From positions 1 to 53,780 of the forward strand of contig DASYLW010000003.1 of NCBI GenBank assembly GCA_036009385.1: DNA of 53,780 nt, given 5' to 3'. Under the pieces are notes generated by a model. The model was not told the DNA's origin, made no database searches, and saw only the letters and a program-made list of their open reading frames with translations. The DNA comes from Caballeronia sp. GTDB lineage: Bacteria > Pseudomonadota > Gammaproteobacteria > Burkholderiales > Burkholderiaceae. Position numbers and translations under genes: made by a program. This document shows, in pieces, positions 5,030-53,780 of the stretch; within the stretch, counting starts at the first letter, position 1, and the number at the start of each line of letters is the position of its first letter.

Positions 5030-5033
5030 GACT

Positions 5034-33240: not shown

Positions 33241-33776
33241 CCGCTACGGCACTGCCCGAGGTCAAGATCATTGAACCGAAAGTCTTCGGCGATGCGCGTG
33301 GCCTTTTCCACGAAAGCTTCAATGCGCGTGAATTTTCCGAGCAAGTGGAGACGGGCGTTGCGTTCGTGCAGGACAACCACTCGCGTTCGGCACGCGGCGT
33401 ATTGCGCGGGTTGCACTACCAGATTGAACATGCGCAGGGAAAGCTGGTGCGTGTGGTGGAAGGCGAAGTGTTCGATGTCGCCGTCGATATCCGCAGACGT
33501 TCGCCGAACTTCGGCAAGTGGGTCGGTGTAAACCTGTCGGCGGAGAACCATCGGCAGGTTTGGGTGCCGCCGGGTTTTGCACACGGATTTGTGGTGTTGT
33601 CCGAGTCTGCGCAATTTCTCTATAAGACGACCGACTATTGGCATCCCGTGCATGAGCGCACCATTCGTTGGAGCGATCCGGAGATTGGAATTGAATGGCC
33701 AATCGACTTGGAACCGCTGCTCGCCGCCAAGGACGCAGCCGGCAAACGCCTCGTGGATGCCGAACACTTTATGTGA
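33225..33776 (+). CDS. rmlC: dTDP-4-dehydrorhamnose 3,5-epimerase
   Basis: Motifs DARG, QDNHS, LRGLH and GFAHGF. Confidence 0.95.
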
Positions 33777-33786
33777 GGATCATCGG

Positions 33787-35601: not shown

Positions 35602-36366
35602 CTATTTTCCCCCATCAACGCTCAATATCTGGCCGCTCACCCAGTTCGCCCAATCGGAGGCAAAAAAGAGAACCGCATGGGCGATATCATCTGGTGCGCC
35701 GAGCCGTTTTAATGCAATACGATGGATCAATTGTTGCTGCCCTTCTGCGCCCATTGCGTCCCATTGCCGTTCAGTCGAGGGATTGCTGCGGATGAAGCCG
35801 GGGGCAACGTTATTGACGGTAATGTTCCATGGGCCAAGTTCATGCGCCAGTTGCCGGGTTAGCCCGATTTGTCCCGCTTTGGCGCTCGCATAGGCCTGAA
35901 TGCCGGTCAGGCTGACGTCAAGGCCCGCCCGGCTGGAGATGTTGATAATGCGGCCAAAATTCTGTTCCTTCATCGAACTGACGGCAGCCTGCGACATCAG
36001 GAACGCGCCGGTCAGATTGACGTCCACAATCGCGTGCCACTGCTCGAATGTCACTTGCTCCAGCGGCTGACCTTGCTGGCCCACTACTCCACCCGCGTTA
36101 TTCACCAGCGTGTCGATCGCACAGTTTTCGGCGCCGAGCTGTGCAAAAAGAGCGGCAACTGCTTTGCCGTCACTGACGTCCAGATGAAATGCACGGCAGC
36201 CCGCGCCGCATAGTTCGGCTGTTTCCTGCGCCCCCGCGAGTTGGATATCGCAAGCGACCACCTGAGCGCCCCGCTGGGCGAACGCCAAGCAAATGGCGCG
36301 GCCAAAACCCTGCGCGGCACCGGTCACCAATACCCGGCGACGTGAGAAATCAAAGGCGTCAAGCAT
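35602..36366 (-). CDS. SDR family oxidoreductase
   Basis: Motifs TGAAQGFG, NNAG, YASAK, VAPG and SVDGG. Confidence 0.92.
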   Translation of the reverse strand: MLDAFDFSRRRVLVTGAAQGFGRAICLAFAQRGAQVVACDIQLAGAQETAELCGAGCRAFHLDVSDGKAVAALFAQLGAENCAIDTLVNNAGGVVGQQGQPLEQVTFEQWHAIVDVNLTGAFLMSQAAVSSMKEQNFGRIINISSRAGLDVSLTGIQAYASAKAGQIGLTRQLAHELGPWNITVNNVAPGFIRSNPSTERQWDAMGAEGQQQLIHRIALKRLGAPDDIAHAVLFFASDWANWVSGQILSVDGGK

Positions 36367-37432
36367 TGGCTGTTCCTCCAAGCAACGCCAGTGTGCCGAG
36401 TGTTTGCGGCAACAGGCCTTGTTCGATTTGGTGAATAAGCGAAACCAGCTGCGTGGTCAGCGGCATGGCAATACCGTAAGCTGTCCCGATAGCAATGGCC
36501 GGAGCAACTTGAGCGTCCACTTCCGTTTGCCGTTTCCGTACTGCCAGGTCACGCCAGATACCCGAGTGGGATTTTGCAGAGCGGCGGTTATGCGCCACCA
36601 TGTCATCGAAGGATTTCGTGGTTTGTTTCGCTGTCGCGTCAGGCAAGAAGGCCCGTGGATCAAACCCGTCAAAACCCTGCAAAGTGATTCCCTTGGCGGA
36701 CGCGACCGAGCCAATTTCCTGCGCCAGTCGTGTCAGCACCGGACGGCATTGCGCCCTGTCCAGGACATCGGCAATGCTGTCGTTACTCAGCGCGGTGGCG
36801 AACAGCAATGCGCCATAAATCATCTTGGCCCACAGGTATCCCCAGATATTCGGCGTCAGGATCGCATCGGCTTCGAACTGTTGCAGCAGGTGGAAAAGCG
36901 CCTCTGTACGGGGACGGGTCACGCCATCCAGTTCACCTATCACCACCGCACCGCGGCCACCAAGATGGATAATCCCCGGCTCGAGGAAGTCAGCACCGAA
37001 GTTAAGAAAAGCGCCGACCGTACGTTCATCGCCGATAAATTCAGCGATGGTACTTTCGTTGAGACCGTTTTGCATGGACACCACATAACCCTGCGGCGCA
37101 AGCAACGGCGTTATATCCCGCATGGCGGCCGGTGTGTGATGAGATTTGACTGCCAGCAATACGGCGCCGAGTTTCCCGCTAAATGCCTTCGCCATCTCTT
37201 CAGGCAAGAATGCTCGCGCCCTGACGCGCTGATCGCCCATCGGGCCAGTGATTCGGAGTCCATCACGGTTTATCGCCTCGACATGTGCAGCGACGTTATC
37301 GACGAAAATGACCTCTTCGCCTGCCTTGATGAAGGCCGCGCCAATCGCACCGCCAATCGCCCCCGCACCCCAGATGATCCATGGCGCGCGGTTATTTTCA
37401 TCTGATGCTAAAGCAGAGAACTTTTCTGACAT
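36359..37432 (-). CDS. Ketopantoate reductase (PanE/ApbA) family protein
   Basis: Motifs GAGAIG, LAVKS, MQNGL, LWAK and TEVD. Confidence 0.88.
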   Translation of the reverse strand: MSEKFSALASDENNRAPWIIWGAGAIGGAIGAAFIKAGEEVIFVDNVAAHVEAINRDGLRITGPMGDQRVRARAFLPEEMAKAFSGKLGAVLLAVKSHHTPAAMRDITPLLAPQGYVVSMQNGLNESTIAEFIGDERTVGAFLNFGADFLEPGIIHLGGRGAVVIGELDGVTRPRTEALFHLLQQFEADAILTPNIWGYLWAKMIYGALLFATALSNDSIADVLDRAQCRPVLTRLAQEIGSVASAKGITLQGFDGFDPRAFLPDATAKQTTKSFDDMVAHNRRSAKSHSGIWRDLAVRKRQTEVDAQVAPAIAIGTAYGIAMPLTTQLVSLIHQIEQGLLPQTLGTLALLGGTANA

Positions 37433-37457
37433 GGCTTGGACTCAAAGTGCAGATTGC

Positions 37458-38153
37458 TTAAAGTGATTCGATCGTGTCGCGGAGTTCGCTCACGGCCGTG
37501 TCCCAGATGGCCTGCATGTCGTCATCGGGGCGCTGATAGCTACCGCCATAGTTGCCGTCGCCAAGATACTGGCGCGCCTGCGCCGGGTTCATCTTGCGCA
37601 GCTCCGCCAGACTGATCATCTGCTTTCGGACATCCGGCTGGGTTACGTTATCGAGCCGCGTCCACGCGAAGTTTTCCATCCACGAAGCGTGTGAGGCCAC
37701 GGCATCGGTCGCGATCACTTTTTCCCACGTCAACGGCGCGTTCCACCAGTTGTACAGTTGCACGCTGACTTCGCGGTTATTCACCATCCATTCACTGATG
37801 ATGTTCTGCGCCGGCGAATTTCCACCATGGCCGTTCACCAGCAAAATACGGCGAAACCCCTGGCGTTTCAGGCTGTTGAGAATGTCGTATAACAAACCGA
37901 CATACGTCTGCATGCTTAGGCTGATGGTGCCGGGGTAATCACAGAAAGTTGGCGTCATGCCAAAGGGCATGACAGGGAACACCGGAACATTGCAGAGTCG
38001 GGCAGCGTCGACAGCGACCTTCTCCGCCAGAATCGAGTCGACCGACAGGCTCAAGAACGCGTGCTGTTCGGTGCTGCCCAAAGGCACAATGGCACGGTCA
38101 TCGGCCAACAGGTAATGTTCCAGCTGTTGCCAGTTCATTTCACTTATTTTCAT
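37458..38153 (-). CDS. Creatininase family amidohydrolase
   Basis: Motifs PLGSTEQH, VDS, NGHGGN and HASWME; start at MKISEMNW. Confidence 0.9.
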   Translation of the reverse strand: MKISEMNWQQLEHYLLADDRAIVPLGSTEQHAFLSLSVDSILAEKVAVDAARLCNVPVFPVMPFGMTPTFCDYPGTISLSMQTYVGLLYDILNSLKRQGFRRILLVNGHGGNSPAQNIISEWMVNNREVSVQLYNWWNAPLTWEKVIATDAVASHASWMENFAWTRLDNVTQPDVRKQMISLAELRKMNPAQARQYLGDGNYGGSYQRPDDDMQAIWDTAVSELRDTIESL

Positions 38154-39135
38154 TGGATTCCTTAGTGTCAGACGCGTTATGGATGCCCTGCTGCAGTAGC
38201 GGCAACACCACCCGCTGTATATCGCCCGCATCAGGAATGTGGCGGTATTCAAAAGCCTGCTGACCCGGTTGAAGCTGCGCAGCCAGTGCCTCGGCGCCAG
38301 TGGCGTACACCAGCGTGTCGGTATTTTTCAGTTGCGCCTCGAGCGCCGGATCGTCGCGCTGCATGACCGTGATCTGGTCCACGTGCGGCGCAAAACGGTG
38401 CACGCCGTTTTTCATCAGCGCGGTAAATTCCGGAAATATCGAAACAACGAGTACCCGGGCCAACGGATCAAGCGACGCGAGTGCGCGTCGCGTGTTTTCC
38501 GATGGAATAAAACTGATATTCAACACGCGCTGGCCGGGCAACAACTGGCTGACTTCACGACGGCGGTGAGCAAAGGTCAGCAGCAAGTCCGCGTCCGCCA
38601 TCCTCTGGCGGAGTGTCTGATCGTCCCTCAGATCGACGATTGTCGTAGCTTCGACGCTGGCAGTTTCTCCAAGCGTTTCGGCTACGCTTTCGGCGTAATC
38701 ACGCGCGGAATCAATAAAATTTCCGATCAAAAACACACGCTTTCTGCGTCGCTGCCGCTGACGGTCGCTGAAGCGGCTGCTGACCAGCGCGCCCAACTCC
38801 TGCGCGGTGAGCGCCATCGTAATACCGCAGTCGATCAACTCATCCACCCGCTGATGCAACAGACCGTAGTCCTGTGGGCGGATGGTCAACGCGTCTTTCG
38901 CATCGGCAATAAAGGTTCCCGAACCGGGCTTGCTGTAGATCAGTTCGGCTTCCTTTAATTCCCGGTAAACCTGTGCAACGGTCATTGGCGCAACGCCGAC
39001 CAATTCAGCCATTTCCCTCACTGACGGCAGTTTCTCGCCCGGCTTCAGCGCTTCGAATGTGATCGCATATTCAATCAGCCCGCGAAGCTGCATTCCGAGC
39101 GGTAGCGCAGAACTGCGGTCCAGATGAAATTCCAT
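38140..39135 (-). CDS. GntR (YtrA-like wHTH) transcriptional regulator with extended C-terminal domain
   Basis: PGEKLPSVREMA...PMTVAQVYREL...GSGTF. Confidence 0.88.
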   Translation of the reverse strand: MEFHLDRSSALPLGMQLRGLIEYAITFEALKPGEKLPSVREMAELVGVAPMTVAQVYRELKEAELIYSKPGSGTFIADAKDALTIRPQDYGLLHQRVDELIDCGITMALTAQELGALVSSRFSDRQRQRRRKRVFLIGNFIDSARDYAESVAETLGETASVEATTIVDLRDDQTLRQRMADADLLLTFAHRRREVSQLLPGQRVLNISFIPSENTRRALASLDPLARVLVVSIFPEFTALMKNGVHRFAPHVDQITVMQRDDPALEAQLKNTDTLVYATGAEALAAQLQPGQQAFEYRHIPDAGDIQRVVLPLLQQGIHNASDTKESNENK

Positions 39136-39436: not shown

Positions 39437-41032
39437 ATGAAGGCATTACATAAAACAACCCTGCTGGCTTTACTGGCGGCAGGCGCGTTGAGCGCGGCAT
39501 GCGCACACGCTGCCGACGCCGTGCAACGCGGGGGAACGCTGGTCTACGGCCGGTATGCCGACAGCATTTTCCTCGAGCCGGTGTTGAATGACAGCAACAA
39601 CGACATCTGGATCCTTTCCAACCTGTATGACACCTTGCTGCTGCCCACCCGCAACGGCAAAGGCATTGAGGCTGGGCTGGCGACCGCATGGAAAGTGGCC
39701 GATGACGGTAAGAGCGTGACCCTGACTCTGCGCCCGGGCATCAAGTTTTCAGACGGTTCGCCCATTACCGCAGAGGACGTGAAATGGTCATTGGAGCGCG
39801 CCAGCAAACCGGGCAACGGAGTCTGGCAATTCATGGTCAGCGCAATCAGTAGCGTCGAGGTAAAAGACCCGCAAACTGTCGTGCTTCAACTCTCCCACCC
39901 TGACCCGGCGATCCTCAGCGCCCTGACTGTCTTTAACACGGCCATCATGCCTAAAAAGACCTTTGAGGCTGCACCGGGCGCGACCGATAGCGAGAAAGCC
40001 ACGGCGTTTGCCGAACATCCGGTTGGCTCCGGGCCGTTCATGCTCAAGTCCTGGCAACATAATTCCACCATGACGCTGGTGCGCAACCCGTATTACTGGC
40101 GCAAAGGAGCCGATGGCAAGGCGTTGCCCTACCTCGACAGCATCAAATTCGAAATCGTGCCCGACGACGCCACCCGCATCCTGAAACTGCAATCCGGTGA
40201 ACTCGACGGCGCCGAGTTCATTCCCTATTCCCGCGTCAACGAGCTGAAAGGCAACCCGGCGCTGAATATGATGTTGTTCCCTTCAACGCGCGTTGAATAT
40301 TCCAGCATGAACGTGCGTCCGGAAATCGACGGCAAACCAAATCCCCTGGCCAACCCGAAAGTGCGTGAAGCACTGAACTACGCCACAGACAAAGACGGCG
40401 TGATGCAGCTGGTCACGTATGGCATCGGTAAACCGATGAGCTCGTTCATGTCGACCTCTACGCCGCTGAACTCCGGCGCCAAGCCACTGTATCCGGTCGA
40501 TGTGGCGAAAGCTAACGCGCTGATGAAGGAGGCCGGGTTCGGCTCCGGTTTCAGCACCAGCATGATGATCCTCGCGGGTAACGAAGACGACATCAGCATC
40601 GCCACTGCGCTGCAACAGATGTGGTCGCAAATCGGTGTCAAACTCACGATCAATCAGGTCGATAACGCCACGCGCACCGACCGTTATCGCAAAGGCGACT
40701 TCAGCATGCGCCTGTCTCCGTGGACCGACGACATTGCCGATCCGAACGAAATCACCGCCTACTTTGCCTACTCCAAGAATATTCAGGCGTTGCATTCCGG
40801 CTGGAAGAATGACGTAGTCGATCAGGTGTTTGAACGCTCTCAGAAAGAGATGGATCCCGTCAAACGTGCGGCCGACTACAAGACAATTCAGGATACCTAC
40901 AACAGCACGGGCCCGACCATCCCGCTGTATGAGAGTTCGTATCCGGTCGCGCTGAAAAAAGACGTGCACGATTTTGTGCAGATCCCACTGGGCAACAACA
41001 TCTTCACCACCACCTGGCTACAAAAGAAATAA
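39437..41032 (+). CDS. Peptide/opine ABC transporter substrate-binding protein (SBP family 5)
   Basis: Signal peptide ending AHA; motifs LYDTL, KFSDGSPITAEDV, PVGSGPF and RNPYYW. Confidence 0.93.
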   Translation: MKALHKTTLLALLAAGALSAACAHAADAVQRGGTLVYGRYADSIFLEPVLNDSNNDIWILSNLYDTLLLPTRNGKGIEAGLATAWKVADDGKSVTLTLRPGIKFSDGSPITAEDVKWSLERASKPGNGVWQFMVSAISSVEVKDPQTVVLQLSHPDPAILSALTVFNTAIMPKKTFEAAPGATDSEKATAFAEHPVGSGPFMLKSWQHNSTMTLVRNPYYWRKGADGKALPYLDSIKFEIVPDDATRILKLQSGELDGAEFIPYSRVNELKGNPALNMMLFPSTRVEYSSMNVRPEIDGKPNPLANPKVREALNYATDKDGVMQLVTYGIGKPMSSFMSTSTPLNSGAKPLYPVDVAKANALMKEAGFGSGFSTSMMILAGNEDDISIATALQQMWSQIGVKLTINQVDNATRTDRYRKGDFSMRLSPWTDDIADPNEITAYFAYSKNIQALHSGWKNDVVDQVFERSQKEMDPVKRAADYKTIQDTYNSTGPTIPLYESSYPVALKKDVHDFVQIPLGNNIFTTTWLQKK

Positions 41033-41048
41033 CGGCCAGCACTGGAAA

Positions 41049-41084
41049 CGAGGCGCGTCAAAGCGCCTCGGTGCCCACCGGGCA
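41049..41084 (+). terminator. Stem-loops after the SBP gene (mRNA stabiliser or attenuator)
   Basis: CGAGGCGC-gtcaaa-GCGCCTCG followed by TGCCC-acc-GGGCA; no U-tract. Confidence 0.45.
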
Positions 41085-41137
41085 TGGACGCCAGTTTGCT
41101 GAACCCGCGGTTTATTACTGCAAGACCGGAGGGCCAG

Positions 41138-42076
41138 GTGCCCGAATTTGCCTACATCCTTAAACGAATATTGCTGATTGTTCCAACGCTGCTTGTGATC
41201 CTGGTGGTGACGTTCACCATCGTGCGCCTGTTGCCGGGTGATCCGGCCAGCGCCATGATCGGCGATCGCAGCACCGATTCTGATGTAACACGCATTAACG
41301 CAGAACTAGGCCTCGACAAACCACTGCCAGTGCAGTTTTTCTATTTTGTCCGTCAGGTCGCAACGCGCAATCTGGGTGACTCTTTTGCGCTGCACGAACC
41401 GGTTACCTCCGTCATCGCCGAGCGTCTGCCGGTAACCTTGATGCTCACGGCAATGGCCGGATTTTTCGCACTGGCAATGGCTATCCCGCTGGCGTTTGTC
41501 TCAGCCCTGCGGCGCAACAGTGCCACTGACATGGCCATTCGAGGCTCCTTTCAGGTCACACTCTCCATGCCGCCTTTTTACATTGGCCTCGTACTACTGA
41601 CCATCTTCTCGGCTCGTCTCCATTGGTTTCCCGTCGGCGGTTACGGCGACACATTCGGTGATCGGGTCTATCACCTTTTTTTGCCGTCGATGACGCTGGC
41701 ACTGAGCCTGACGGCCGTACTAATGAACAACCTCCGGGCCTCGATCATCGCAGTACTTGATGCCGAATACGTTACCTTCGCCCGAGCCAAAGGTCTGAGC
41801 AACCGCACGATCCTCCTGCGGCACGTTATGCGTAACGCGCTTATCCCGACGCTGACGCTTTTTGCCCTCAATATCGGCACGATTATCGGCGGTGCGGTGA
41901 TCACCGAAACCGTCTTCGCCGTACCGGGAATTTGCCGGTTGATGGTCGACAGCATTTTCAGCCGTGACTACCCCATGGTGCAGGGTCTGGTGATCGTGCT
42001 GTCGGTACTGGTTTCCCTGATCTTCCTTGTCACCGACATCGTCCAGGTCGCGCTCGACCCGCGGAGGGCAAGATGA
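41138..42076 (+). CDS. Peptide ABC transporter permease (DppB-like)
   Basis: Motifs PGDPA, GLDKP, YVTFARAKG, RNALIP and DPR; GTG start after GGAGG. Confidence 0.92.
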   Translation: MPEFAYILKRILLIVPTLLVILVVTFTIVRLLPGDPASAMIGDRSTDSDVTRINAELGLDKPLPVQFFYFVRQVATRNLGDSFALHEPVTSVIAERLPVTLMLTAMAGFFALAMAIPLAFVSALRRNSATDMAIRGSFQVTLSMPPFYIGLVLLTIFSARLHWFPVGGYGDTFGDRVYHLFLPSMTLALSLTAVLMNNLRASIIAVLDAEYVTFARAKGLSNRTILLRHVMRNALIPTLTLFALNIGTIIGGAVITETVFAVPGICRLMVDSIFSRDYPMVQGLVIVLSVLVSLIFLVTDIVQVALDPRRAR

Positions 42077-42924
42077 CAGCACTTATTCTCTCCCGTTCGT
42101 TGACTCGTTCGTGGCGCAAACGTCTGCCGTGGCCCACGCTGCTAGGCATGTTGATTTTGCTGTTCAGCCTGACCGCGGCATTTTTCCCCGCATGGATCGC
42201 GCCTCATGATCCGCTGCAGTTCGACTACCGCGCGATCCTCAAGGGCCCCAGCGCCCAGCACCTCTTCGGTACCGATAATTTCGGCCGCGATATTTTTGCT
42301 CGCGTGATCTATGCGTACCGGATCGATTTGCAGATCGCCTTGTTCACCACGCTGTTCCCGATGGTGTTCGGTACGCTGGCCGGCTTGCTGGTCGGTTTTT
42401 ACGGCGGTATGGCTGAAACCTTGTTCCAGCGCGTGGTTGACGCAGTGATCACTTTCCCGCTGCTAGTGCTGGTGATCGCTATCGTCGCGATCCTCGGGCC
42501 TGGACTGAAGAGCATGTACATCGCCGTCGGGATCATCTACTGGGTGTTTTACGCCCGGTTGATCGCCGGTGAAGTCAGCGTACAAAAGCGGCTGGATTAC
42601 GTTGCCGCCGGACAGGTGATGGGCTACAGCCACCTGCGGATCATCTTTCGCCATCTGTTGCCGAACGTGGTCACGACCACCCTGGTGTACTGGATGACCG
42701 ACATGGCGCTGTCAATCCTGCTCGGGTCCAGCCTGGGCTATCTCGGTCTGGGCGCACAGCCTCCGACGGCGGAATGGGGCGTGCTGATTTCATCGGGCAA
42801 GAACTTCATGGACACCGCCTGGTGGATCACTATTTTCCCTGGAGTGGCTATTGTCCTGACGGGCCTTGGCTTCAGCCTGATCGGCGATGCGCTGGCCGAA
42901 TGGTTACGTCCCGGCAATCACTAG
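42073..42924 (+). CDS. Peptide ABC transporter permease (DppC-like)
   Basis: Motifs HLFGTDNFGRD, HLLPN and GAQPPTAEWG. Confidence 0.92.
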   Translation: MTALILSRSLTRSWRKRLPWPTLLGMLILLFSLTAAFFPAWIAPHDPLQFDYRAILKGPSAQHLFGTDNFGRDIFARVIYAYRIDLQIALFTTLFPMVFGTLAGLLVGFYGGMAETLFQRVVDAVITFPLLVLVIAIVAILGPGLKSMYIAVGIIYWVFYARLIAGEVSVQKRLDYVAAGQVMGYSHLRIIFRHLLPNVVTTTLVYWMTDMALSILLGSSLGYLGLGAQPPTAEWGVLISSGKNFMDTAWWITIFPGVAIVLTGLGFSLIGDALAEWLRPGNH

Positions 42925-42934
42925 AATCGAATCG

Positions 42935-43948
42935 ATGAACAATCAATCAGACAGCGACGGCGCACTGTTGCAAGTAACCGGCCTGAATACCCGCATCAAG
43001 ACATCGCGTGGCGAGTTGCGTGCGATTCAGGACGTCAGCCTGACGCTGGAAAAGGGTGAGATCCTCGGACTAGTAGGCGAATCCGGCTCGGGCAAGAGCG
43101 TGACGTTGCGTTCGCTTCTCAAGCTGATGCCCCCGTCTGCGGAAATCTCCGGCTCGGTGAAATGGCAGGGACGCGAACTCTCTACGTTAAGCTCCTCCGC
43201 GCTGCGCTCGGTACGTGGTCGCGAGATCGCCATGATTTTCCAGGAGCCGATGATCGCCCTGAACCCGGTGCTGACCGTGTGGAGGCAAATTGAGGAAACC
43301 CTGCATGCGCACACCGACCTGAACCGCAAACAGCGGCGTCTGCGCGCTGTAGAGCTTCTGACCCAAGTGGGGATTCCGGCGCCGGAAAGCCGGCTGGATG
43401 ATTATCCGCATCAATTTTCTGGCGGCATGCGCCAGCGCGTGATGATAGCCATTGCGCTGGCCGGCGATCCTCGCTTGCTGCTGGCGGACGAACCCACCAC
43501 CGCGCTTGATGTCACCATCCAGGAGCAAATCCTGAAGCTGCTGCTCAATCTGCGCGATGAACTGGGCATGGGCATTATTTTCGTTACGCACGATCTGGGC
43601 GTGGTTGCGCAACTCTGCGATCGCGTAGCGGTAATGTACGCCGGGCGCATTGTCGAAACCGGGCCGGTCAACGCGATTCTCCGCCAGCCACATCACCCTT
43701 ATACCCAGGGGCTGATCGCCTCGGTGCCTCAGGCAGGTGACGAAGGTACGCCACTGCTGTCGATCGAAGGTACGCCGCCGTCGCTGCTGGATTTACCGCA
43801 AGGGTGCAGCTTTAGCTCCCGCTGCATCCACAGCACCGCGGTGTGCCGGCAACAGCTGCCGGAGCTGGTGACGTTGTCGGAACATCAACAGGTTGCCTGT
43901 CATCATCATCTGCACATTCAGCAGCAACGACAGCCGGAAGAGGTATGA
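42935..43948 (+). CDS. Peptide ABC transporter ATP-binding protein (DppD-like)
   Basis: Motifs [24 protein letters not shown] and HPYT. Confidence 0.93.
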
Positions 43949-43949
43949 G

Positions 43950-44948
43950 ATGAGCGAGACCATCACGCCGCGCGAGATACCGATCATCAGCGTCGAAGAC
44001 GCGATGGTGCATTTCCCCGTAAAGCGATCGCAGATGCAGCGCCTGCAAGGAAAACCGAAGCAGTTTGTACAGGCACTGAATGGCGTGCGCCTGGAAATCG
44101 CCCGTGGCGAAACGCTGGGGATTGTCGGCGAATCCGGCTGTGGAAAGTCCACGTTGGCGCGCGCGCTGGTGGGCCTGCTAAGCACCACCGACGGGCGGGT
44201 ACGCTTCAAGGGGCAGGACATTTCCACACTGCTTGGTCAGGCCCGGCGCAACTTCAACCGCCAGGTGCAGATGATATTTCAGGATCCCTACGGTTCGCTG
44301 AACCCGCGCATGACGGTTGGCCAGATGTTGAGTGAAGCGCTGTCGGTGCACGACATGCGTCCGAAGCATGCCATTCCTGCAAGGATCCTTGAGCTAATGG
44401 ACCTGGTGCGCTTACCGGCGGATGCCATAGACAAACTGCCGCATGAGTTTTCCGGCGGACAGCGCCAGCGCATTGGCATCAGTCGTGCGCTTGCGGTTGA
44501 ACCGGAAGTGCTGGTCGCCGATGAGTTGGTGTCGGCGCTGGACGTCTCGGTGCAGGCGCAGGTGGTCAATCTGTTGCTGGACCTGCAGAACAAGCTGTCT
44601 CTGACGGTGCTGTTCGTCGCCCACGACCTACGGCTGGTACGCCATATTTCGCACCGTGTCGCGGTGATGTATCTTGGGGAAGTTGTCGAGGTTGGCAACA
44701 CGCAAACGCTGTATCGCACTCCGCTGCACCCCTATACCCAAGCACTATTGCGCGCTGCGCCGAGCCTCGACCCTGCCACACGCGGCAAGAATGTCAGCCT
44801 GACCGGCGAATTGCCTAGCCCTCTTTCGCCCCCGGCCGGCTGTCGTTTTCATACCCGCTGCCCTAACGTCACGGACCGCTGCCGGGTTGAACGGCCTGTG
44901 CTGACATTAAAAGCGTCAGGGCAAAAAGTCGCCTGTCATTGGGCGTGA
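43950..44948 (+). CDS. Peptide ABC transporter ATP-binding protein (DppF-like)
   Basis: Motifs GESGCGKS, FSGGQRQR and GCRFHTRC. Confidence 0.93.
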   Translation: MSETITPREIPIISVEDAMVHFPVKRSQMQRLQGKPKQFVQALNGVRLEIARGETLGIVGESGCGKSTLARALVGLLSTTDGRVRFKGQDISTLLGQARRNFNRQVQMIFQDPYGSLNPRMTVGQMLSEALSVHDMRPKHAIPARILELMDLVRLPADAIDKLPHEFSGGQRQRIGISRALAVEPEVLVADELVSALDVSVQAQVVNLLLDLQNKLSLTVLFVAHDLRLVRHISHRVAVMYLGEVVEVGNTQTLYRTPLHPYTQALLRAAPSLDPATRGKNVSLTGELPSPLSPPAGCRFHTRCPNVTDRCRVERPVLTLKASGQKVACHWA

Positions 44949-44990
44949 AAAGATTAGCCCGAAACACTAACCAGAGTGCAAGAGAACAAT

Positions 44991-45953
44991 ATGACTAAAA
45001 ACTCATCCACGCCGGCACTGGCGATCCACGGTGGTTGCGGTGTGATGGCCGAACATGAGATGACCGCAGAAGAATGGGACGCGGCCCGCGATGCGCTGAA
45101 GCAAGCGTTGCGGGCAGGTGCGGTCGTGTTGCAACGCGCCGGCTCCGCACTGGATGCGGTTCAGGCTGCGGTGCTGGTGATGGAAGACTCGCCGTGGTTC
45201 AACGCCGGTTTCGGTGCGGCTCTCAACGCCGACGCACAGCACGAACTTGACGCCGCCATCATGTGCGGCAGCACTTCGGCAGCCGGCGCAGTTTGCGGCG
45301 CGAGGCAGATCCGCAATCCGATTTTAGCGGCCCGAAGTCTGCTGGATGCCGGCGAAAGCGTGTTGCTTGGCGGCAGCGGTGCTGACCGTTACGCCCTTCA
45401 ACATGGCCTCGCCTGCGTTGACGGCGACTATTTCACCACGCCACGTCGTGTAGAAGCGCTCGAGGCCATGCGCCGCCACCAACTGGCAGGCACGTACAAA
45501 GCCGCAAAAGAAGCGGAAAAACATGGAACGGTCGGTGCCGTGGCACTCGACCAGCACGGCCATCTGGCGGCGGCAACCTCCACAGGCGGGTACACCAACA
45601 AGCCGGTTGGCCGCATCGGCGACAGTCCCCTGATCGGCTCTGGCACTTATGCCCGCGATGGCGCCTGCGCGGTGTCCGGCACTGGCCAGGGAGAATATTT
45701 CATCCGTCATGTATTGGCTCACGACATTGCCTGCCGCATGACTCATGCCGGCGAAAACGTTCAGCAGGCCGCCGCACACAAGATCATGGGAGAGTTTAAG
45801 GATCTGGGAGTGGGTGCCGGCGTTATCGCCATCAGTGCTGATGGTGAAGTCGCCGCGCCGTTCAATACTATCGGCATGTTCCGCGGATGGATCTTGCCTG
45901 ACGGACGCGCTTGTGTCGGCAGTCATCGCGACCTCTACTATTTCGATCTTTGA
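44991..45953 (+). CDS. iaaA: Isoaspartyl peptidase/L-asparaginase (Ntn hydrolase, IaaA-like)
   Basis: Motifs AIHGG, FNAG, autocleavage/nucleophile HG|TVGAVA, TSTGG, GRIGD and TGQGE. Confidence 0.92.
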   Translation: MTKNSSTPALAIHGGCGVMAEHEMTAEEWDAARDALKQALRAGAVVLQRAGSALDAVQAAVLVMEDSPWFNAGFGAALNADAQHELDAAIMCGSTSAAGAVCGARQIRNPILAARSLLDAGESVLLGGSGADRYALQHGLACVDGDYFTTPRRVEALEAMRRHQLAGTYKAAKEAEKHGTVGAVALDQHGHLAAATSTGGYTNKPVGRIGDSPLIGSGTYARDGACAVSGTGQGEYFIRHVLAHDIACRMTHAGENVQQAAAHKIMGEFKDLGVGAGVIAISADGEVAAPFNTIGMFRGWILPDGRACVGSHRDLYYFDL

Positions 45954-45955
45954 GG

Positions 45956-46042
45956 GATGAATGGACCCATCCGCAACTGCTCGCGCGCGAGCGTCTGGTC
46001 GAGGTGAATACTCCGGCCAGCCCAATGCCCGCGATGCTGCCG
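45956..46042 (+). pseudogene. Relic of a CaiB/BaiF (Ict-like) CoA-transferase C-terminal region
   Basis: DEWTHPQLLARERLVEVNTPASPMPAMLP matches DVWAHPQLAARGRWREVGTSAGRVPALSP of the 3851-5029 protein at 16 of 29 positions with no gaps. Confidence 0.75.
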
Positions 46043-46069
46043 CTGGCGAACCATGGACAAAAGGAACAC

Positions 46070-47314
46070 ATGATTGCTGACATTCTCACCGCACCGACCT
46101 TAGGCGCTTTTTTCTACGACGACCAGCGCGCCATCCGCGCAGGCGCGCAGCAGGTGGGTTTCGACTACACCGGTGAACCCGTCACGCCGGGTTTCTCGCG
46201 CATCCGCGTGCCGGGTCAGGCGCTTGGCGTCGGCCTCGTGCTCGACGACAGCTTCGTCGCGTGGGGCGACATGATGACCGTGCAGTACTCCGCGGCAGGC
46301 GGGCGCGAACCGGTGTTCAATCGCGACCGTGCGCAGGCGCTGCTCGATGGACCCTTGAAGCCGCGTTTGCTCGCGCTCGATTTCAGCAACCTGCGTGAGG
46401 ACATCGCGCGCGTATTCGCTCCGTTGCCCGATGGCTCGAGCGTGCCGTCATCGGTGCAATACGGACTCAGTCAGGCGTTGCTTGGCGCGTATGCACATCG
46501 CCGCCGCTTGACAATTGCCGAGGTGCTCGCCGATGCCTACGACCTGCTCCTCATTGCCGAACCCGTGCCCATCTATGCGCAGAGCGGCGACGAACGCAAG
46601 GTGAACGTGCAGAAGATGGTCATGAAACGCGTCGATGTCCTGCCGCATGGTCTCATCAACACGCCCGCGAAATTCGGCCAGGACGGTCGCCTCTTCGCCG
46701 ACTACGCCAAATGGGTCGCGGCTCAAGTCAACGGTGCAGCGGACCCCGCCTATCAGCCGACCTTGCACTTCGATCTGTACGGCAACGCAGGTATCGAATT
46801 CCATGATGATCCGTTGAAGATCGCCGAGTACATCGCACGTGTCGCGGAGTCGGTGGCGCCTTATCAACTCCATATTGAATCGCCCGCCGACTATGGCAGC
46901 ACTGACAACCAGATTGAGGGTTTCCTGCAGATCCGGCATCACCTCAATGCATTGGGATGCAACGCAAAGATCGTCGCCGACGAATGGTGCGACACGCTGG
47001 CCGACGTCGAACGCTTCTGCAAGAGCGGCGCAGCCGATATAGTCCAGATCAAGATGCCTGACGTGGGCAGCGTGACGCATTCGTTCGAAGCCGTGCTGTT
47101 GTGCAAGGCACACGGCGTCGGCGCTTATCTGGGCGGCAGTTGCGTGGAGACCGACTTGTCCGCGCGCATCTCGGTGCATGCCGCACTCGCCTCGCGCGCC
47201 GACATGCAGCTCGCCAAACCCGGCATGGGCGTGGACGAAGCCTTGACCATCGTCGGGAACGAGCAAGCCCGCTTGCTTGCGTTATTACGGGCGAAAAACG
47301 CGCGCCGCGGATAA
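46070..47314 (+). CDS. mal: Methylaspartate ammonia-lyase
   Basis: MAL-type motifs FYDDQ, VQYS, QSGD, LPHGLIN, HFDLYG, IESP, VADEWC, QIKMPD, GGSC and KPGMG; AAGGA RBS before MIAD. Confidence 0.9.
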   Translation: MIADILTAPTLGAFFYDDQRAIRAGAQQVGFDYTGEPVTPGFSRIRVPGQALGVGLVLDDSFVAWGDMMTVQYSAAGGREPVFNRDRAQALLDGPLKPRLLALDFSNLREDIARVFAPLPDGSSVPSSVQYGLSQALLGAYAHRRRLTIAEVLADAYDLLLIAEPVPIYAQSGDERKVNVQKMVMKRVDVLPHGLINTPAKFGQDGRLFADYAKWVAAQVNGAADPAYQPTLHFDLYGNAGIEFHDDPLKIAEYIARVAESVAPYQLHIESPADYGSTDNQIEGFLQIRHHLNALGCNAKIVADEWCDTLADVERFCKSGAADIVQIKMPDVGSVTHSFEAVLLCKAHGVGAYLGGSCVETDLSARISVHAALASRADMQLAKPGMGVDEALTIVGNEQARLLALLRAKNARRG

Positions 47315-47658: not shown

Positions 47659-48705
47659 TCACGCGATCCGTTGCATGTACCTCGGCAAATCGGGTTCGGG
47701 TAGCACCGCCAGCACTTTCAAACGCTTCAGCGTGCGTTCCTGCGCCGCATACAGGTGCGCGCTTAGCGCTGCTGTTGCCGCGTCGACATCGTTGTCGAGC
47801 AGATGCCGCAATACCGCGCGATGTTCTGTCAGCGTCGCCACGTCGGGATGCAGATTGAAGGCGTTATGGAACGCATGATTCACCGTCAGCGGCATGTGCG
47901 CATGCCCGATCGTGCGCAGTAGCTTCTTGTTGTGCGCATGCTGCAGGCAGTCGACGTGCAGTGTGGTCTCGAGCCGCTGCAAGCCGTCCGCATCGATAGA
48001 ATCCGGGTCGCGGATCGACCTCTCGATTTCGGCATACGCATGGGTGAGCACATCGTGGGCGAGCAAAGGCTGGCTGGCGCGAAGCGCGGCCGGCTCCAGC
48101 AACACGCGCAGTTCATAGTCCTGCGCTACTGCTCGCGCGGTCAGCGGACCGGCAAGCCAGTGCGAGTAAGCGGACTTCTCGATCAGTCCGAGATCGCGAA
48201 GTCGGTTCAGCGCTTCACGTACCGTACTGCGACTCACGCCGAATGCTTCCGCCGCTACGCTCTCGTCGATGCGGAAATGACCGAATGCGATCCCGATCGA
48301 CACCGCCGCTTCGAGCGCGTGATAGATTCGCTCGCTGTTCGACGGCAGCGCTAGCGCAACCGGTGCCTCGTCCAAGCCGAGCGTCACCTCGGACAACGGT
48401 GCGCGTAACGGCTCCGCCACGCTGCCGTCGGGATGTGCGACCAGGTAGCCGCGCCCGTCGAACGTGTGCAGCAGGCCGCCGGCATGCAGCATCTCAAACG
48501 CCTTGCGCACCGGCACGCGGCTCGTGCCGAAAATCTCTGCGACCGGCCCCTCGACTAACACCAGTCCAGGAGACACGCGTCCGAGCGCAATCGCCTTCTT
48601 CAAGTGATCGTGGATCAGGCGGTAGCGTAGTCGGGTGTCGGCATCAACCGCAGTTTCCGCAAGCGAGGGCGGCAGCGAAGCCGGAGCGCGTATGCGTCTT
48701 TTCAT
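47659..48705 (-). CDS. GntR/FCD regulator with two winged-HTH domains
   Basis: HTH1 FGTSRVPVRKAF, HTH2 FGVSRSTVREAL, and FCD domain (YELRVLLE...EHRAVL). Confidence 0.88.
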   Translation of the reverse strand: MKRRIRAPASLPPSLAETAVDADTRLRYRLIHDHLKKAIALGRVSPGLVLVEGPVAEIFGTSRVPVRKAFEMLHAGGLLHTFDGRGYLVAHPDGSVAEPLRAPLSEVTLGLDEAPVALALPSNSERIYHALEAAVSIGIAFGHFRIDESVAAEAFGVSRSTVREALNRLRDLGLIEKSAYSHWLAGPLTARAVAQDYELRVLLEPAALRASQPLLAHDVLTHAYAEIERSIRDPDSIDADGLQRLETTLHVDCLQHAHNKKLLRTIGHAHMPLTVNHAFHNAFNLHPDVATLTEHRAVLRHLLDNDVDAATAALSAHLYAAQERTLKRLKVLAVLPEPDLPRYMQRIA

Positions 48706-48723
48706 CTTTCAGGTTGTTGTGCT

Positions 48724-50022
48724 TCAGGCTTGCTTGAATTCATTCCAGCGACGCACCAGGTAATTGTGCTCGTCCATCACCGAGTTCCACACCGCAATGC
48801 GGCCCATGCGCGACACATAGTTGCCACCATCGCGTTGCTGACCCGCGGCGATCAGGTGCTTGCTGGTCGGACCCGGCAGTTCGGACTCTGCTGGCTTGCC
48901 ATCGTACCAGTAAGCCCATTCCGCCGCGTCGAGATAGCCGCGCGAGCGCTCGGCGTTCGAGATGTAGAACCCCTGTCGCGCCATGGCCGCGCCAGCCCAG
49001 CCGTCGAGCCACCAGTTGAGGTAATCATATGCGGCGTCGAGTACGCGTCCATGCGCGACACGGGACAGCGACATCCCTCCGAACCATGCGCGGTAGCCCT
49101 CTTTGGGACTGGCCAGCCGGAAGTGCAGACCGGCGCGCTGAAGTTCGACGGCCGCGGGCGACCAGACACTTTGGATCACAACCTTGTTGGCGATCATCAG
49201 TTGCGCAGCGTCTGCAAAAGTCGACCAAAAGCCGGCAAAGTGGCCGCGCCGCTTGAAGCCGATCAGCGTCGAGATCAGAGCGTCGATTTCTTCGATCGTC
49301 AGGTTGCCAATGTCCGCGAACTGCATGAGACCGCTGGCCTCGACAGCGAGCGCGGCGTCGATTGCCCCGATCGCGGCGTCCGCCTGCAACGCAACGCGGC
49401 CGGCCAGTTCCGGTGCAAGCAGCCACGCCCAGCTTTCCGGCGTCGCCGCCAATGACGGCGGCAATGCATCCTGGAGATAGACGAAGCTGTCCGCGTTGTG
49501 CGTCAGCGGCAGCATGCTGATGCGATCGGATGCCTTGCGGGCGAGCGAGCCGTCAGCCTGTACATAAAGGCGGTCAACCGGAACGCTTCCCGCGCTTGCG
49601 CACTTATGCCGCGCGAGGCTATTCGCGCGCGGCAGCGAATTGACTTCTTGCCAGTGCCTGATTCGCGCAACGTCGATCGGCTGAAGCGCCTGCGCGGGCC
49701 ACAGGTAATCGATGCTATGAAACCACTGATCGTAGATTTCGTAGCTCTCAGGGTGCATCACGCCGGCACGCTGGACGGCCGAACTGTCGTCGACGATGAA
49801 GCGCAGCCGGATCCCCAGATCTTCCTCGGCCTGCTTGCGGATGTGTTCCTGCAGCGTGGACGTAGTGCCCAGTACACGTAGTTCGACCTTGCCCCGGTGA
49901 ACCGCGGGTGCGCGGGCCGGTCCAGACGATGCCCCTGTTATGTCGTATGGCGCCGGGGATGCCGGATGAGGCGTCGGGGGATCGGGCTGGGGGCGGGGCG
50001 GTTTCGTGCGGGCTGTGTTCAA
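48724..50022 (-). CDS. PotD/PotF-like ABC substrate-binding protein lacking an obvious signal peptide
   Basis: Motifs ESWAWLL, QSVWSP, PKEGYRAW and YDYLNWW. The TTG start overlaps the cobW stop; the N-terminus is Pro-rich. Confidence 0.78.
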   Translation of the reverse strand: MNTARTKPPRPQPDPPTPHPASPAPYDITGASSGPARAPAVHRGKVELRVLGTTSTLQEHIRKQAEEDLGIRLRFIVDDSSAVQRAGVMHPESYEIYDQWFHSIDYLWPAQALQPIDVARIRHWQEVNSLPRANSLARHKCASAGSVPVDRLYVQADGSLARKASDRISMLPLTHNADSFVYLQDALPPSLAATPESWAWLLAPELAGRVALQADAAIGAIDAALAVEASGLMQFADIGNLTIEEIDALISTLIGFKRRGHFAGFWSTFADAAQLMIANKVVIQSVWSPAAVELQRAGLHFRLASPKEGYRAWFGGMSLSRVAHGRVLDAAYDYLNWWLDGWAGAAMARQGFYISNAERSRGYLDAAEWAYWYDGKPAESELPGPTSKHLIAAGQQRDGGNYVSRMGRIAVWNSVMDEHNYLVRRWNEFKQA

Positions 50023-51176
50023 TGATCAGGTTCTTCGAAGTGTTGACGGAACCGCGCATATGACGCTTCGACGATGTCGCGTGCGAGCCCCTCCGTGATG
50101 AAGACGAGCGTCGACCTCCTCCGGGCATCGGGCCACACCTCAAGATGCAGCACCGGATGGACCAAATGCTGTACGGCGTGTAGCACCGCCGGCTGAGCGC
50201 AGCCCGCGATCGACAGCAGGCCTTTGACGCGCAAGATCCTATCACCGTGACGATTCAGCAGCATAGTGAACCAGATCGTAAACACCTGCCAGTCGATCGG
50301 CTCGTCGATCTGCATGCAGAACGACACGATGTCCTGTGAGGCGGCCGGTCGGTCAGGCGCAGCAAGGGAAGACATGGCGCGGCGGTGCGCGAGCGACGCG
50401 GGGTCTCTCGACCAGGTGCGGTAACTGCCTTCGTCGCGCGCGCCATTGCATTCGGTGGCGGGTTCCGCGGACGTGGCCGAATCGAAGCCCGGAGATACCG
50501 CCCCGCTCGCCAACTCGCGCTGCACGCGGCCGAGCCGGCGCGTCAGATCAGTCGAGATAGCTGGAGCGAAAAGTATATCGCCCGTTTCCGACGCGCTTGC
50601 GCGCATCACCACTTCTGCCGCCGGGTTCAGTTCCGCAAGCATGCGGGCCAGCGCGGCAACGCTCGCAGGGTCAGCAAGGTCCGACTTGCTGATCACGAGC
50701 CGGTCGGCAGCGCTCACCTGCGCCAGCCATTCCGGATGCCGTGCGCGCTGCTGCGCGGCGTTGAGCGCGTCGACCACGGTCACCGTCGCGTTCAACGCAT
50801 AGTGACTGCGGATCACCGGATCGGCGAGCAGTGTCGCCATGATCGGCGCCGGTGTCGCAAGGCCTGTAGTCTCCAGCACCACTCGGGAAAACGGCGGCAG
50901 GTCACCGCGCGCGCGTTGCGAAAACAGCGTCGCCAAGGCCTCCTTGAGCTCACCGCGAATGGAGCAGCAGACGCAGCCGTTATCGAGCAGCACGGTGCGT
51001 GCATTGACTTCGCCGACCAGCAGATGATCGAGTCCCACTTCGCCGAACTCGTTGATCAGGACGGCGGTGTCTTTTGCCGCGTCGCCGCGAAGCAAGTCGG
51101 CGAGCAACGTCGACTTTCCGCTGCCAAGGAAACCTGTTACGAGCGTAACCGGCAGGATGTCGTAACTGGGACTCAT
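50019..51176 (-). CDS. CobW/COG0523 G3E GTPase metallochaperone
   Basis: Motifs GFLGSGKS, NEFGE, GCVCC, ETTG, SKSD and LRVKG. Confidence 0.93.
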   Translation of the reverse strand: MSPSYDILPVTLVTGFLGSGKSTLLADLLRGDAAKDTAVLINEFGEVGLDHLLVGEVNARTVLLDNGCVCCSIRGELKEALATLFSQRARGDLPPFSRVVLETTGLATPAPIMATLLADPVIRSHYALNATVTVVDALNAAQQRARHPEWLAQVSAADRLVISKSDLADPASVAALARMLAELNPAAEVVMRASASETGDILFAPAISTDLTRRLGRVQRELASGAVSPGFDSATSAEPATECNGARDEGSYRTWSRDPASLAHRRAMSSLAAPDRPAASQDIVSFCMQIDEPIDWQVFTIWFTMLLNRHGDRILRVKGLLSIAGCAQPAVLHAVQHLVHPVLHLEVWPDARRRSTLVFITEGLARDIVEASYARFRQHFEEPDH

Positions 51177-51547
51177 GATGCAGGTCGATCGTCCGCGAAA
51201 CGATGGCCGGTAGTGGCCGTCGCTCGATCGCCCGAGGGTGGCAGTGGGGATGGCGTTGCCTCGTCCACGTCGAAAAGGGTGAGCGGATCGAGGGGCCTTC
51301 CCAGCATCTGTTCGGCGACGCGCCAGACCTGCCCGAAATCGCCGACCAGTTCGCTTGCGCCCGTCGGGGACGACAGGACGAACGATTGTCCATGAAAATC
51401 GTCGAGCCGAAGCCGGCACGAAGCTAGCACGCGGTTCGCCAGGGCCACATGGATGAGGCGCTGGCTTCGTGCGTTCGCTCCTTTGACCGGCGGGATTATG
51501 TTAGACCAGTGATTGCTGCCACCCAGCAGCCCGCACATTCCACACAT
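51173..51547 (-). CDS. Small CxxC protein (MCGMCG...HW) coupled to CobW
   Basis: GGAG RBS; N-terminal CxxC; ATGA overlap with cobW. Confidence 0.78.
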   Translation of the reverse strand: MCGMCGLLGGSNHWSNIIPPVKGANARSQRLIHVALANRVLASCRLRLDDFHGQSFVLSSPTGASELVGDFGQVWRVAEQMLGRPLDPLTLFDVDEATPSPLPPSGDRATATTGHRFADDRPAS

Positions 51548-51549
51548 GC

Positions 51550-52584
51550 TCACACTCCGTCTGATGCTGGTTTTCCTGCAACCAACGACATTTCGTTGGG
51601 GCTGGAAAACGATGGAAATCGGGCACGCCAATTAAAAAGATCTTTGAACGCCTTGTCTAAAAGGAATTGGGGTTGATAACCGGTGTCCCGTTTGAGGCGC
51701 TCGATGCTCATTGGCGCGCGCGGAGTCGACGCACTTTGTCCGACCGTGCACCTCTCAAGTACGTCGGCGAATTCATAGCGAAACGCCGGAAAGCGCTGCT
51801 TGAGATGTTCACACCACCCCGCCACCGGCCAACGCATGCCGGCTGACAAATGGTAAATCGGCTCCGGCGTATCGTGTCGGTCGAGCAAGGCGGCAATGCC
51901 GCTTGTGACGTCGGTCGCGTACACCCAGTCATCGCCCGCGCCTTGATGCACGACCGCGGAACCACCCGCCTCGGCGATATCGGATAACTGCAGCGGCAGG
52001 CTAAGCGTGTCACGCATCCCGGTGTCATATTCCCATCTGCCGAATACGACGCCCAGCCGCGCTACCACAACGTTAAGGCCGCGGCTGCTGCGGTAGCGCA
52101 CCGCGGCGCGCTCCGCCGCGTATTTGCTGATGCCGTACAGCGTAAGCGGGACGGCCGGACTAATTTGCTCATCGAGCATCGCGCTGGCGGTGCCGGCCGC
52201 CCCGAAGATCGAACCGCTGCCGAGCTGAACAACGCGGCTTACGCCGTGGCGCAACGCTGCTTCCAGAAGTTCGACCGTTCCCAGCAGGTTCACGGTAAAG
52301 ATGTCGCGCGCGGCGCGCTTCTCGCGCGCGAGATCCGCCGTAACGGCCGCGCCGTGGACAACGCGGTCGATCGTATAGGAAGCAAACACGGCATCGAGAT
52401 CGGCTGGGACCGATACATCACCGTGGGCCAGGGATAACCTGCCGGGAAGGCGCTGCAGGGATGTGACCGCGATTGGCGGCGGCGCGCCAGGACCGAACAA
52501 GATGACGTCTACGCCCCGCGCGAGCAAGTTCTCCGCCACATTCAGGCCGACAAATCCGGCGCCGCCGGTAATTAAAATTGCCAT
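51550..52584 (-). CDS. NAD-dependent epimerase/dehydratase (extended SDR)
   Basis: Motifs TGGAGFVG, HGAA and YGISK; AAGGA RBS. Confidence 0.9.
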   Translation of the reverse strand: MAILITGGAGFVGLNVAENLLARGVDVILFGPGAPPPIAVTSLQRLPGRLSLAHGDVSVPADLDAVFASYTIDRVVHGAAVTADLAREKRAARDIFTVNLLGTVELLEAALRHGVSRVVQLGSGSIFGAAGTASAMLDEQISPAVPLTLYGISKYAAERAAVRYRSSRGLNVVVARLGVVFGRWEYDTGMRDTLSLPLQLSDIAEAGGSAVVHQGAGDDWVYATDVTSGIAALLDRHDTPEPIYHLSAGMRWPVAGWCEHLKQRFPAFRYEFADVLERCTVGQSASTPRAPMSIERLKRDTGYQPQFLLDKAFKDLFNWRARFPSFSSPNEMSLVAGKPASDGV

Positions 52585-52837
52585 TCCCGCATCCTTTAGA
52601 CCAATTGTGGCCACGCTCGAAACAGGGCCCGTGGCGCTCCTCTTCGGAACAACGCCTTGCCGAACTACATGCAACGGACAACCGGATTGACGGTTTTATG
52701 GCGCAGCCGACGCGGCAAGGCGAAGATTGTCGAACGGACGGCTGCACGCAGGGGGAAGGACGGCGCAAACACTACTGTATTTTGCGCATGCCAGTCACCG
52801 TCGGCTTCGTGTCGCGATTGGCGCGGCTTGCCTCGGC

Positions 52838-53779: not shown

Positions 53780-53780
53780 T

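Follow-up and report, generated by a model that had tools for sequence, protein, structure and literature searches.

The DNA analysed here, 53,780 nt of contig DASYLW010000003.1 from Caballeronia sp. (hereafter the window, meaning that whole stretch), carries at 39437-47314 seven intact genes, all on the + strand, which lead from the substrate-binding protein (SBP) of a peptide-type ABC importer through an isoaspartyl peptidase/asparaginase (IaaA) to a methylaspartate ammonia-lyase (MAL). An original prediction made from the letters alone had read these genes as co-directional, with the metal-binding and catalytic motifs of MAL intact; Pfam matches, a MAL profile score of 518 bits on TIGR01502 (cut-off 286) and intact motifs bear this out and show the genes to be real. 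The cassette and the operon divergent from it comprise the features below, where L and G numbers label compared loci and genomes and G000 is the source genome (completeness 79.9%).

35602-36381, - strand: SDR oxidoreductase, module A (adh_short_C2; identity 97% with C. udeis, 65% with Rhizobium BG4 and 49% with L131)
36359-37432, - strand: ApbA/PanE-like reductase, module A (PF02558+PF08546; homologues adjoin the same type of ABC system in L098, L099, L100 and L131)
37458-38153, - strand: creatininase-family amidohydrolase, module A (PF02633; 50-65% identity in L097-L100)
38140-39135, - strand: GntR regulator, divergent from the ABC genes (PF00392)
39437-41032, + strand: family 5 substrate-binding protein, SBP_bac_5 (PF00496)
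41084-42924, + strand: two ABC permeases (PF00528)
42887-44948, + strand: two ABC ATPases with the oligopeptide C-terminal domain oligo_HPY (PF00005+PF08352)
44991-45953, + strand: IaaA-like isoaspartyl peptidase/asparaginase, an Ntn hydrolase of the Asparaginase_2 family (PF01112, E 1e-91)
45956-46042, + strand: remnant of a class III CoA-transferase (CaiB), CaiB residues ~320-348, in the iaaA-mal spacer
46070-47314, + strand: MAL of the mutase-free clade A (M68, Y169, S357)

Module A denotes the GntR, creatininase, ApbA-like and SDR genes on one strand together with the ABC genes and a hydrolase on the other. The creatininase gene likely starts at ATG 38153, its longest open reading frame beginning at 38252.

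The MAL shares 41-44% identity with solved MALs, and its predicted fold, of the enolase superfamily, matches 1KKO with a TM of 0.95 and an rmsd of 1.5. The gene starts at ATG 46070, behind an AAAGGAA ribosome-binding site, rather than at TTG 45911. Catalytic and metal positions are all kept (K328, H193, Q326, D235, E270, D304), the counterparts in the reference MAL being base K331, H194, Q329 and the Mg ligands D238/E273/D307. Also kept are Q72, Q171, Y353, C358, L381 and M386, and in the reference substrate pocket (Q73, F170, Q172, Y356, T360, C361, L384, M389) six of eight residues are retained, the changes being F170 to Y169 and T360 to S357. The original prediction, right about the intact metal-binding and catalytic motifs, overlooked these two substitutions, the first of which concerns a residue described in PMC7241714 as lining the methyl pocket. 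Judging from a dN/dS of 0.16 against Caballeronia udeis and 0.07 against L008, mal is under purifying selection; its dS of 0.11 is close to that of the other cassette genes (0.15-0.23).

Classically, MAL acts as the second enzyme of a pathway, behind glutamate mutase. In G000, glmE (PF06368) was not found, glmS returned nothing above cut-off (the best match being a methionine synthase on contig C478), and tblastn recovered neither glmE nor glmL; glmE was not found in G402-G405 either, and the two nearest MAL carriers yielded no glutamate mutase. What the original prediction had noted for the window is in this way extended to an 80% complete genome and to its nearest fellow carriers.

The IaaA-MAL cassette arrangement is rare. 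A family-level search found MAL in two of 395 other genomes, both distant, and an order-level search in five of 401 including G000, the three others fetched being 36-39% identical, on a different branch and without IaaA; when 185,579 species genomes were scanned by pattern, the 80 loci retained included two orthologs above 60%. The block from SDR to mal is common to G000 and C. udeis at 94-96% DNA identity, and the source organism is close to that species. At least half of the words of the iaaA-mal stretch occur in 19 soil runs, one of them possibly the source run, and contigs bridge the junction in two of three other soil DNA runs, so that the adjacency is no assembly artefact.

A FastTree phylogeny of 184 rows (the 183 of 189 loci giving a full-length match, plus the window) resolved a clade A of 40 rows, to which the window MAL belongs, and a clade B of 26 rows, with 88 mutase-linked rows elsewhere; another 28 rows had upstream DNA too short to judge mutase linkage. 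The fetched flanks held glmE in none of the 40 clade A rows and none of the 26 clade B rows. With 38 chosen rows, IQ-TREE supported clade A (14 rows) at 100/98, clade B at 100/100 and 12 mutase-linked rows at 95/96. Clade A is characterised by M68 (38/40), Y169 (33/40), S357 (39/40) and the loss of N362, positions at which the 88 mutase-linked MALs have C, F, T/S and N, and Q72 and Q171 on the amine side are unchanged in 40/40. The best 120 protein matches to the window MAL (53-100% identity) have S at position 360 throughout and mostly M68 and Y169, their named hosts being Mesorhizobium, Bradyrhizobium, Sinorhizobium, Microvirga, Xylophilus and Paraburkholderia.

Of 38 clade A loci, 31 have CaiB or a CoA lyase no more than 8 kb away and 23 have a class I fumarase. 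Mesaconate use is drawn with just such a CoA-transferase, CoA lyase and class I fumarase in Figure 2 of PMC4682846, and these enzymes are needless for fumarate, so the MAL product is likely mesaconate. The earlier proposal that methylaspartate is imported rather than made gains support from this mutase-free branch and its partners. Upstream of MAL stand mostly C-N hydrolases: amidase-signature, nitrilase, isochorismatase-family (in clade B), M20, M24, M19, M55 and M81 proteins, with M20 plus M19 in L162. In L009 (5853-11245) nitrile hydratase subunits and a nitrilase lie directly upstream of a clade A MAL accompanied by two CaiB genes, an arrangement that suggests a cyano precursor of (methyl)aspartate. 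Clade B MALs (for example L113, L120, L121, L124, L130, L131, L138, L152, L164 and L169) have His at the Q329 position in 25 of 26 cases, and their partners are an isochorismatase-family hydrolase or a set of glutamine-synthetase-like, amidohydrolase, GATase II and SDR genes. A third, more divergent MAL-like group (L088, L145, L232, L233 and L249-L251, of which the two checked, L088 and L145, lack Q73 and Q172) accompanies SBP5 ABC systems, phosphonate (phn) genes or tripartite transporters.

IaaA adjoins MAL in four loci: the window, C. udeis and two metagenomic loci, L131 (GC 44%) and L156 (GC 72%). L131 has the order ApbA, SDR, SBP5 ABC, IaaA, M55, SDR, MAL, M20, M19, with identities to the window genes of 42% for ApbA, 49% for SDR, 28% for SBP and 35% for IaaA; iaaA and mal of L156 overlap, stop on start, and M55 comes next. 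A single origin of the four IaaA-linked MALs, a group named after the FastTree had been seen, was rejected (p-AU 7.5e-7), with three changes on the tree. Because module-A-type clusters and MAL met more than once a functional link can be argued, from cases that are few. Module-A-type genes also flank the clade B MALs of L131, L141, L156 and L162. The linkage of iaaA and dpp-like genes to mal, central to the original prediction, is thus half upheld: IaaA-MAL recurs independently, but ABC-IaaA also occurs without mal.

Aligned to E. coli 2ZAK (E 7e-70), the IaaA retains the substrate motifs GRIGD and SGTG as well as residue 180, the nucleophilic Thr with which the beta chain starts. It scores 270 bits on the equivalog NF007589 (cut-off 567) and is hence a member of the same family, not the enterobacterial ortholog; its closest named relatives are from Sodalis and Rouxiella (77-79%), and it is the only Asparaginase_2 protein encoded in G000. 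The SBP is 72% identical to Klebsiella plasmid proteins, and its best PDB match is AapF (7KZ8, E 2.5e-69). Scores of 145 bits on the dipeptide DppA model (cut-off 1005) and 191 on GsiB (cut-off 594) indicate that the 'dppABCDF' naming of the original prediction, which also left out the divergent operon, expresses likeness only. That operon of GntR, creatininase, ApbA-like and SDR genes (35602-39135) is the transporter's conserved partner; four of seven fetched SBP plasmid neighbourhoods have GntR plus creatininase, and the gene behind the last ATPase varies across them (M32, aspartoacylase-like, aminopeptidase P). Among 299 family genomes, G000 alone had the SBP at E<=1e-120; among 401 enterobacterial-family genomes, IaaA at E<=1e-95 had one match, behind the same ABC genes on a contig that stops 310 bases on.

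Module A is spread over Proteobacteria and Deinococcus (L097-L100, L244, L246 and L248 besides the window) with varying peptidases, an RraA-like gene accompanying it in L099 and L100. In Rhizobium BG4 (L098, 18915-25497) it is followed by a LuxR solo together with an iminopeptidase-like hydrolase and another family 5 ABC system, which is Pip-like. The C-terminal part of GntR alone shows weak homology to GntRs preceding glutamate mutase operons (E 3.6e-7 to L086) and, as a lead only, falls in an ESM Atlas cluster in which 56% of the members carry PF27163 YmtS_Ross (score 0.91).

The two parts of the cassette have different relatives, IaaA and SBP being closest to enterobacterial proteins and MAL to rhizobial ones. 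A second module, B, is seen in Paraburkholderia L008 as amidase, LysR, broken CaiB and mal (87% identity), and intact (amidase, mal, CaiB, lyase, class I fumarase) in L104, L217 and L218, the first two being near-copies, with L105 the same without the lyase. The iaaA-mal spacers of the window (45954-46069, ~117 bases) and C. udeis (329 bases) are unrelated. In C. udeis the spacer holds 70 codons of an L008-type amidase on the reverse strand, 76% identical, and in the window 29 CaiB codons in the mal frame, 16/29 identical to the CaiB encoded elsewhere in the window (E 1e-8); where this remnant scores 79, 1000 shuffles reach at most 42, and a rhizobial CaiB profile gives it only E 0.017. From these relics we infer that modules A and B were neighbours in a common ancestor and that amidase, LysR and CaiB went in two separate deletions, both of which spared mal. 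Loss of CaiB would cost little, as the genome of each of the three Burkholderiaceae carriers encodes CaiB and CoA lyase at other places.

A C5-dicarboxylate module that we take to resemble an itaconate cluster lies in the same window, 39 kb from the cassette and unlinked to it (1662-7059, within an itaconate/methylsuccinate-type cluster spanning 906-7059), and is a likely sink for citramalate. Its genes were identified by Pfam:

1662-2456, - strand: CoA lyase (159 bits on the RipC_Ccl model, cut-off 375)
2456-3829, - strand: PrpD-like
3854-5029, - strand: CaiB
5037-6197, - strand: acyl-CoA dehydrogenase
6220-7059, - strand: hydratase-like

With a class I fumarase gene on contig C455, G000 has every family that makes up the itaconate/mesaconate module: CoA-transferase, hydratase, C-C lyase and class I fumarase. 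The Burkholderia xenovorans route of mesaconate/itaconate use is described in PMC4682846 with class I fumarase, succinyl-CoA:citramalate CoA-transferase and citramalyl-CoA lyase, and G000 has homologues of all three steps; that route starts at mesaconate, whereas the window would feed an amino acid into it via MAL.

We tentatively read the cassette, at a confidence just short of even, as a peptide/amide uptake-and-hydrolysis module joined to an intact MAL that would deaminate 3-methylaspartate from an imported compound to ammonia and mesaconate. The ABC system would import a small amide or iso-linked peptide, from which the creatininase-like enzyme and IaaA would free 3-methylaspartate; MAL would take off ammonia to give mesaconate, and the fumarase on C455 would yield citramalate, which CaiB and the lyase (window 1662-5029) would convert to pyruvate and acetyl-CoA. 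The last two steps taken by themselves, with MAL acting on externally derived 3-methylaspartate, are probable; granted that much, it is in turn probable that the window's ABC system and IaaA are what feeds MAL. Two points in favour of this reading are that two different deletions, in the window and in C. udeis, both spared mal, and that an amide or peptide hydrolase lies within 5 kb in 19 of the 38 clade A loci and 13 of the 15 in clade B but in only 2 of the 78 mutase-linked ones (those with at least 5 kb of flank).

Several points weigh against it. The adjacency was apparently made by deletions, which makes the ABC+IaaA+MAL linkage younger and looser than an old conserved pathway, and L008, the nearest ortholog outside the window/C. 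udeis pair, has neither iaaA nor ABC genes. Just 4 of the 66 loci in clades A and B have IaaA at 10 kb or less, two of these 4 being sisters, and the L131 MAL, with His at the Q329 position, may differ in substrate. None of the seven SBP plasmid neighbourhoods has mal, and a K. variicola plasmid, from a record outside the 18 MAL plasmids, carries creatininase-GntR-ABC-iaaA without it. The hydrolase count is biased, as the queries came from mutase-free loci, glm genes fill the control upstream flank, and kin and near-copies are included. Finally, the F170Y change falls within the methyl pocket, G000 is only 80% complete, and the one RNA run covered had no more than a single piece, 213 bases long, of iaaA.

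Alternatively, two unrelated modules may happen to adjoin, which we hold to be rather unlikely. Module A would then by itself degrade a peptide of uncommon make-up (isoAsp, D-amino-acid or cyclic amide), and mal, surviving from an amidase-LysR-CaiB-mal unit, would act on free or otherwise supplied 3-methylaspartate. The spacer remnants and the differing nearest relatives of IaaA/SBP and MAL fit such a history, and so do the copies of module A in Klebsiella, Rhizobium, Microvirga and Deinococcus, which have no mal. Yet mal has lost its LysR and now stands 117 bases behind iaaA, where a promoter/terminator scan, itself weak and giving counts at the level of shuffles (2 vs 3.6; 8 vs 8.3), found no site; moreover, purifying selection on mal goes on, and module-A-type genes recur beside clade B MALs.

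The original prediction had offered a simpler alternative, MAL as an aspartase converting aspartate freed by IaaA from asparagine or isoaspartyl peptides to fumarate and ammonia. No aspA above cut-off was found in G000, G402 or G403, the window iaaA is the sole Asparaginase_2 gene of the genome, and Y169 could leave less room in the methyl pocket. Aspartate is indeed deaminated by known MALs, but with a Km reported in PMC7241714 as 42-141 times higher; in addition, the methyl-pocket residues Y353 and L381 are kept, and the clade's partner genes suit mesaconate better than fumarate. The alternative is retained as unlikely. A shift of clade A to another substituted aspartate, be it 3-hydroxyaspartate from siderophore peptides or an N-alkyl aspartate, would account for the clade-wide changes at M68, Y169 and S357 and the loss of N362, but it is made improbable by the invariance of Q72 and Q171, by the kinetics of CaMAL T360S, given in PMC7241714 as unchanged, and by the C5 downstream module, which argues for mesaconate.

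Microcystin and nodularin hold iso-linked methylaspartate in the D-erythro form. The original prediction named them as possible sources, and M81/MlrC-like genes stand 1.7 kb behind mal in C. udeis and near mal in L093, while L131 adds a D-aminopeptidase; but salvage of such fragments is highly improbable, there being no racemase for a D-erythro residue in the shared cassette, no M81/MlrC-like match in G000 (by a search without positive control), only soil runs among the 20 in which the stretch occurs, and no paper joining these subjects in a full-text literature search. MlrA, MlrB and MlrD did not turn up among the cassette Pfam matches, in which no search was aimed at them. That a glutamate mutase sits in the unassembled fifth of the genome, with MAL in its usual role, is allowed by the 79.9% completeness but barely credible given no glmE in G402 or G403 and a whole clade A unlinked to the mutase.

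Downstream of mal, the window (47659-53780) has a double-GntR regulator, SBP_bac_8, a CobW GTPase, a small open reading frame, an NAD epimerase and an Asp/Glu-racemase-like/GAF fusion, a cluster not common to C. udeis. Just left of the cassette are rml dTDP-rhamnose genes (31255-34680), and a SAM-cyclase-AAA-TPR protein is encoded at 16880-20572. Contig C415 of G000 carries an ordinary ectoine uptake and catabolism cluster.

In E. coli, iaaA-gsiABCD couples IaaA with a family 5 ABC importer. The window likewise has IaaA co-directional with a peptide-type ABC system, but its SBP falls far below the GsiB cut-off, and creatininase, ApbA-like, SDR, GntR and MAL genes are extra. AapF of the Pseudomonas Pip/Aap system is the best solved relative of the SBP, though the window cassette has no LuxR solo or proline iminopeptidase and a ligand is not transferable at this distance. 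The methylaspartate route by which glutamate is fermented, described as glmS-glmL-glmE-mal-mesaconase for Clostridium tetanomorphum, Citrobacter amalonaticus and E. coli O157:H7 in PMC4682846, shares with the window the MAL fold, the catalytic residues and the predicted product mesaconate; the window differs in that no mutase was found, in its own M68/Y169/S357 branch, in being putatively fed by a hydrolase and transporter, and in relatives that are mostly soil and root bacteria. A full-text literature search, with subscription papers and supplements outside its scope, found no description of MAL catabolism without the mutase, nor of module A, and the passages of PMC4417242, PMC13451416, PMC3102087 and PMC5808125 that name MAL mention it in passing only. 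The enzymes belong to known families; the mutase-free MAL branch, widespread and apparently undescribed, and its wiring appear to be new.

Of 201 Mesorhizobium genomes, 92 have MAL and three have glmE, 89 of the 92 carriers being without detected glmE (two of the 92, G401 and G558, belong to other MAL branches). Twenty Mesorhizobium regions of 20 kb, all picked by MAL match, contain CaiB (18), CoA lyase (16), fumarase (17), aldehyde dehydrogenase (15) and class III aminotransferase (6). The rhizobial cluster of mal, caiB, CoA lyase, LysR, aldehyde dehydrogenase, class I fumarase, Lrp and aminotransferase genes (L089-L093, L217-L236) is apparently undescribed. Its MALs stand beside DoeA-, DoeB-, aminotransferase-, aldehyde-dehydrogenase- and Lrp-like genes as in ectoine catabolism (DoeABCD/Eut), the DoeA-like and DoeB-like genes lying upstream of mal in several regions; these clusters, absent from the window cassette, differ in scoring below all Doe cut-offs and in adding MAL, fumarase, CaiB and lyase, an addition that points to a 3-methyl analogue.

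In the Mesorhizobium genome G557, on contig C5 (L238, 1653-15154) about 90 kb from mal, there are genes for an aspartokinase and Asd, for a B12-binding subunit and an ATP-grasp ligase, for EctB, which scores above cut-off, and for a GlmE-like protein that falls short of it (372 bits, cut-off 390), as well as for RpiR and an NRPS-aminomutase (KamA) fusion; G463 (contig C3; L237, L240) has a similar GlmE-like gene, and ectB near mal. The mutase-ask-asd-ectB genes of G557 are candidates for making 3-methyl-2,4-diaminobutyrate from glutamate, a route that the rhizobial mal clusters would reverse, and 3-methyl-diaminobutyrate is accordingly named as their predicted substrate. 2,4-Diamino-3-methylbutanoate and rhizolotine are known from Lotus nodules. 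A diaminobutyrate transaminase expressed in nodules, msi260, is reported from the M. loti island in PMC3538637, where the passage naming it gives no pathway.

It is possible, if still doubtful, that a so far unrecognised trade in 3-methylaspartate-based metabolites has mutase-free MALs as its shared end-point, with some B12-mutase makers and many more users that would combine MAL and the mesaconate route with a varied hydrolase and importer (amidase, nitrilase, cysteine hydrolase, IaaA or ectoine-type). Mesorhizobium would then represent a rhizopine-type pair, with rare mutase-ask-asd-ectB makers and a catabolic cluster in nearly half of the sampled species, and the window a peptide-scavenging version. 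The natural F170Y/T360S variants widen the biocatalyst family for substituted aspartates, and through the rhizobial MALs the genetics behind a nodule amino acid, reportedly described decades ago, may become accessible to testing. So large a MAL branch working without the mutase would mean that soil and root bacteria receive 3-methylaspartate, or something closely analogous, from external sources and in quantities that repay a pathway.

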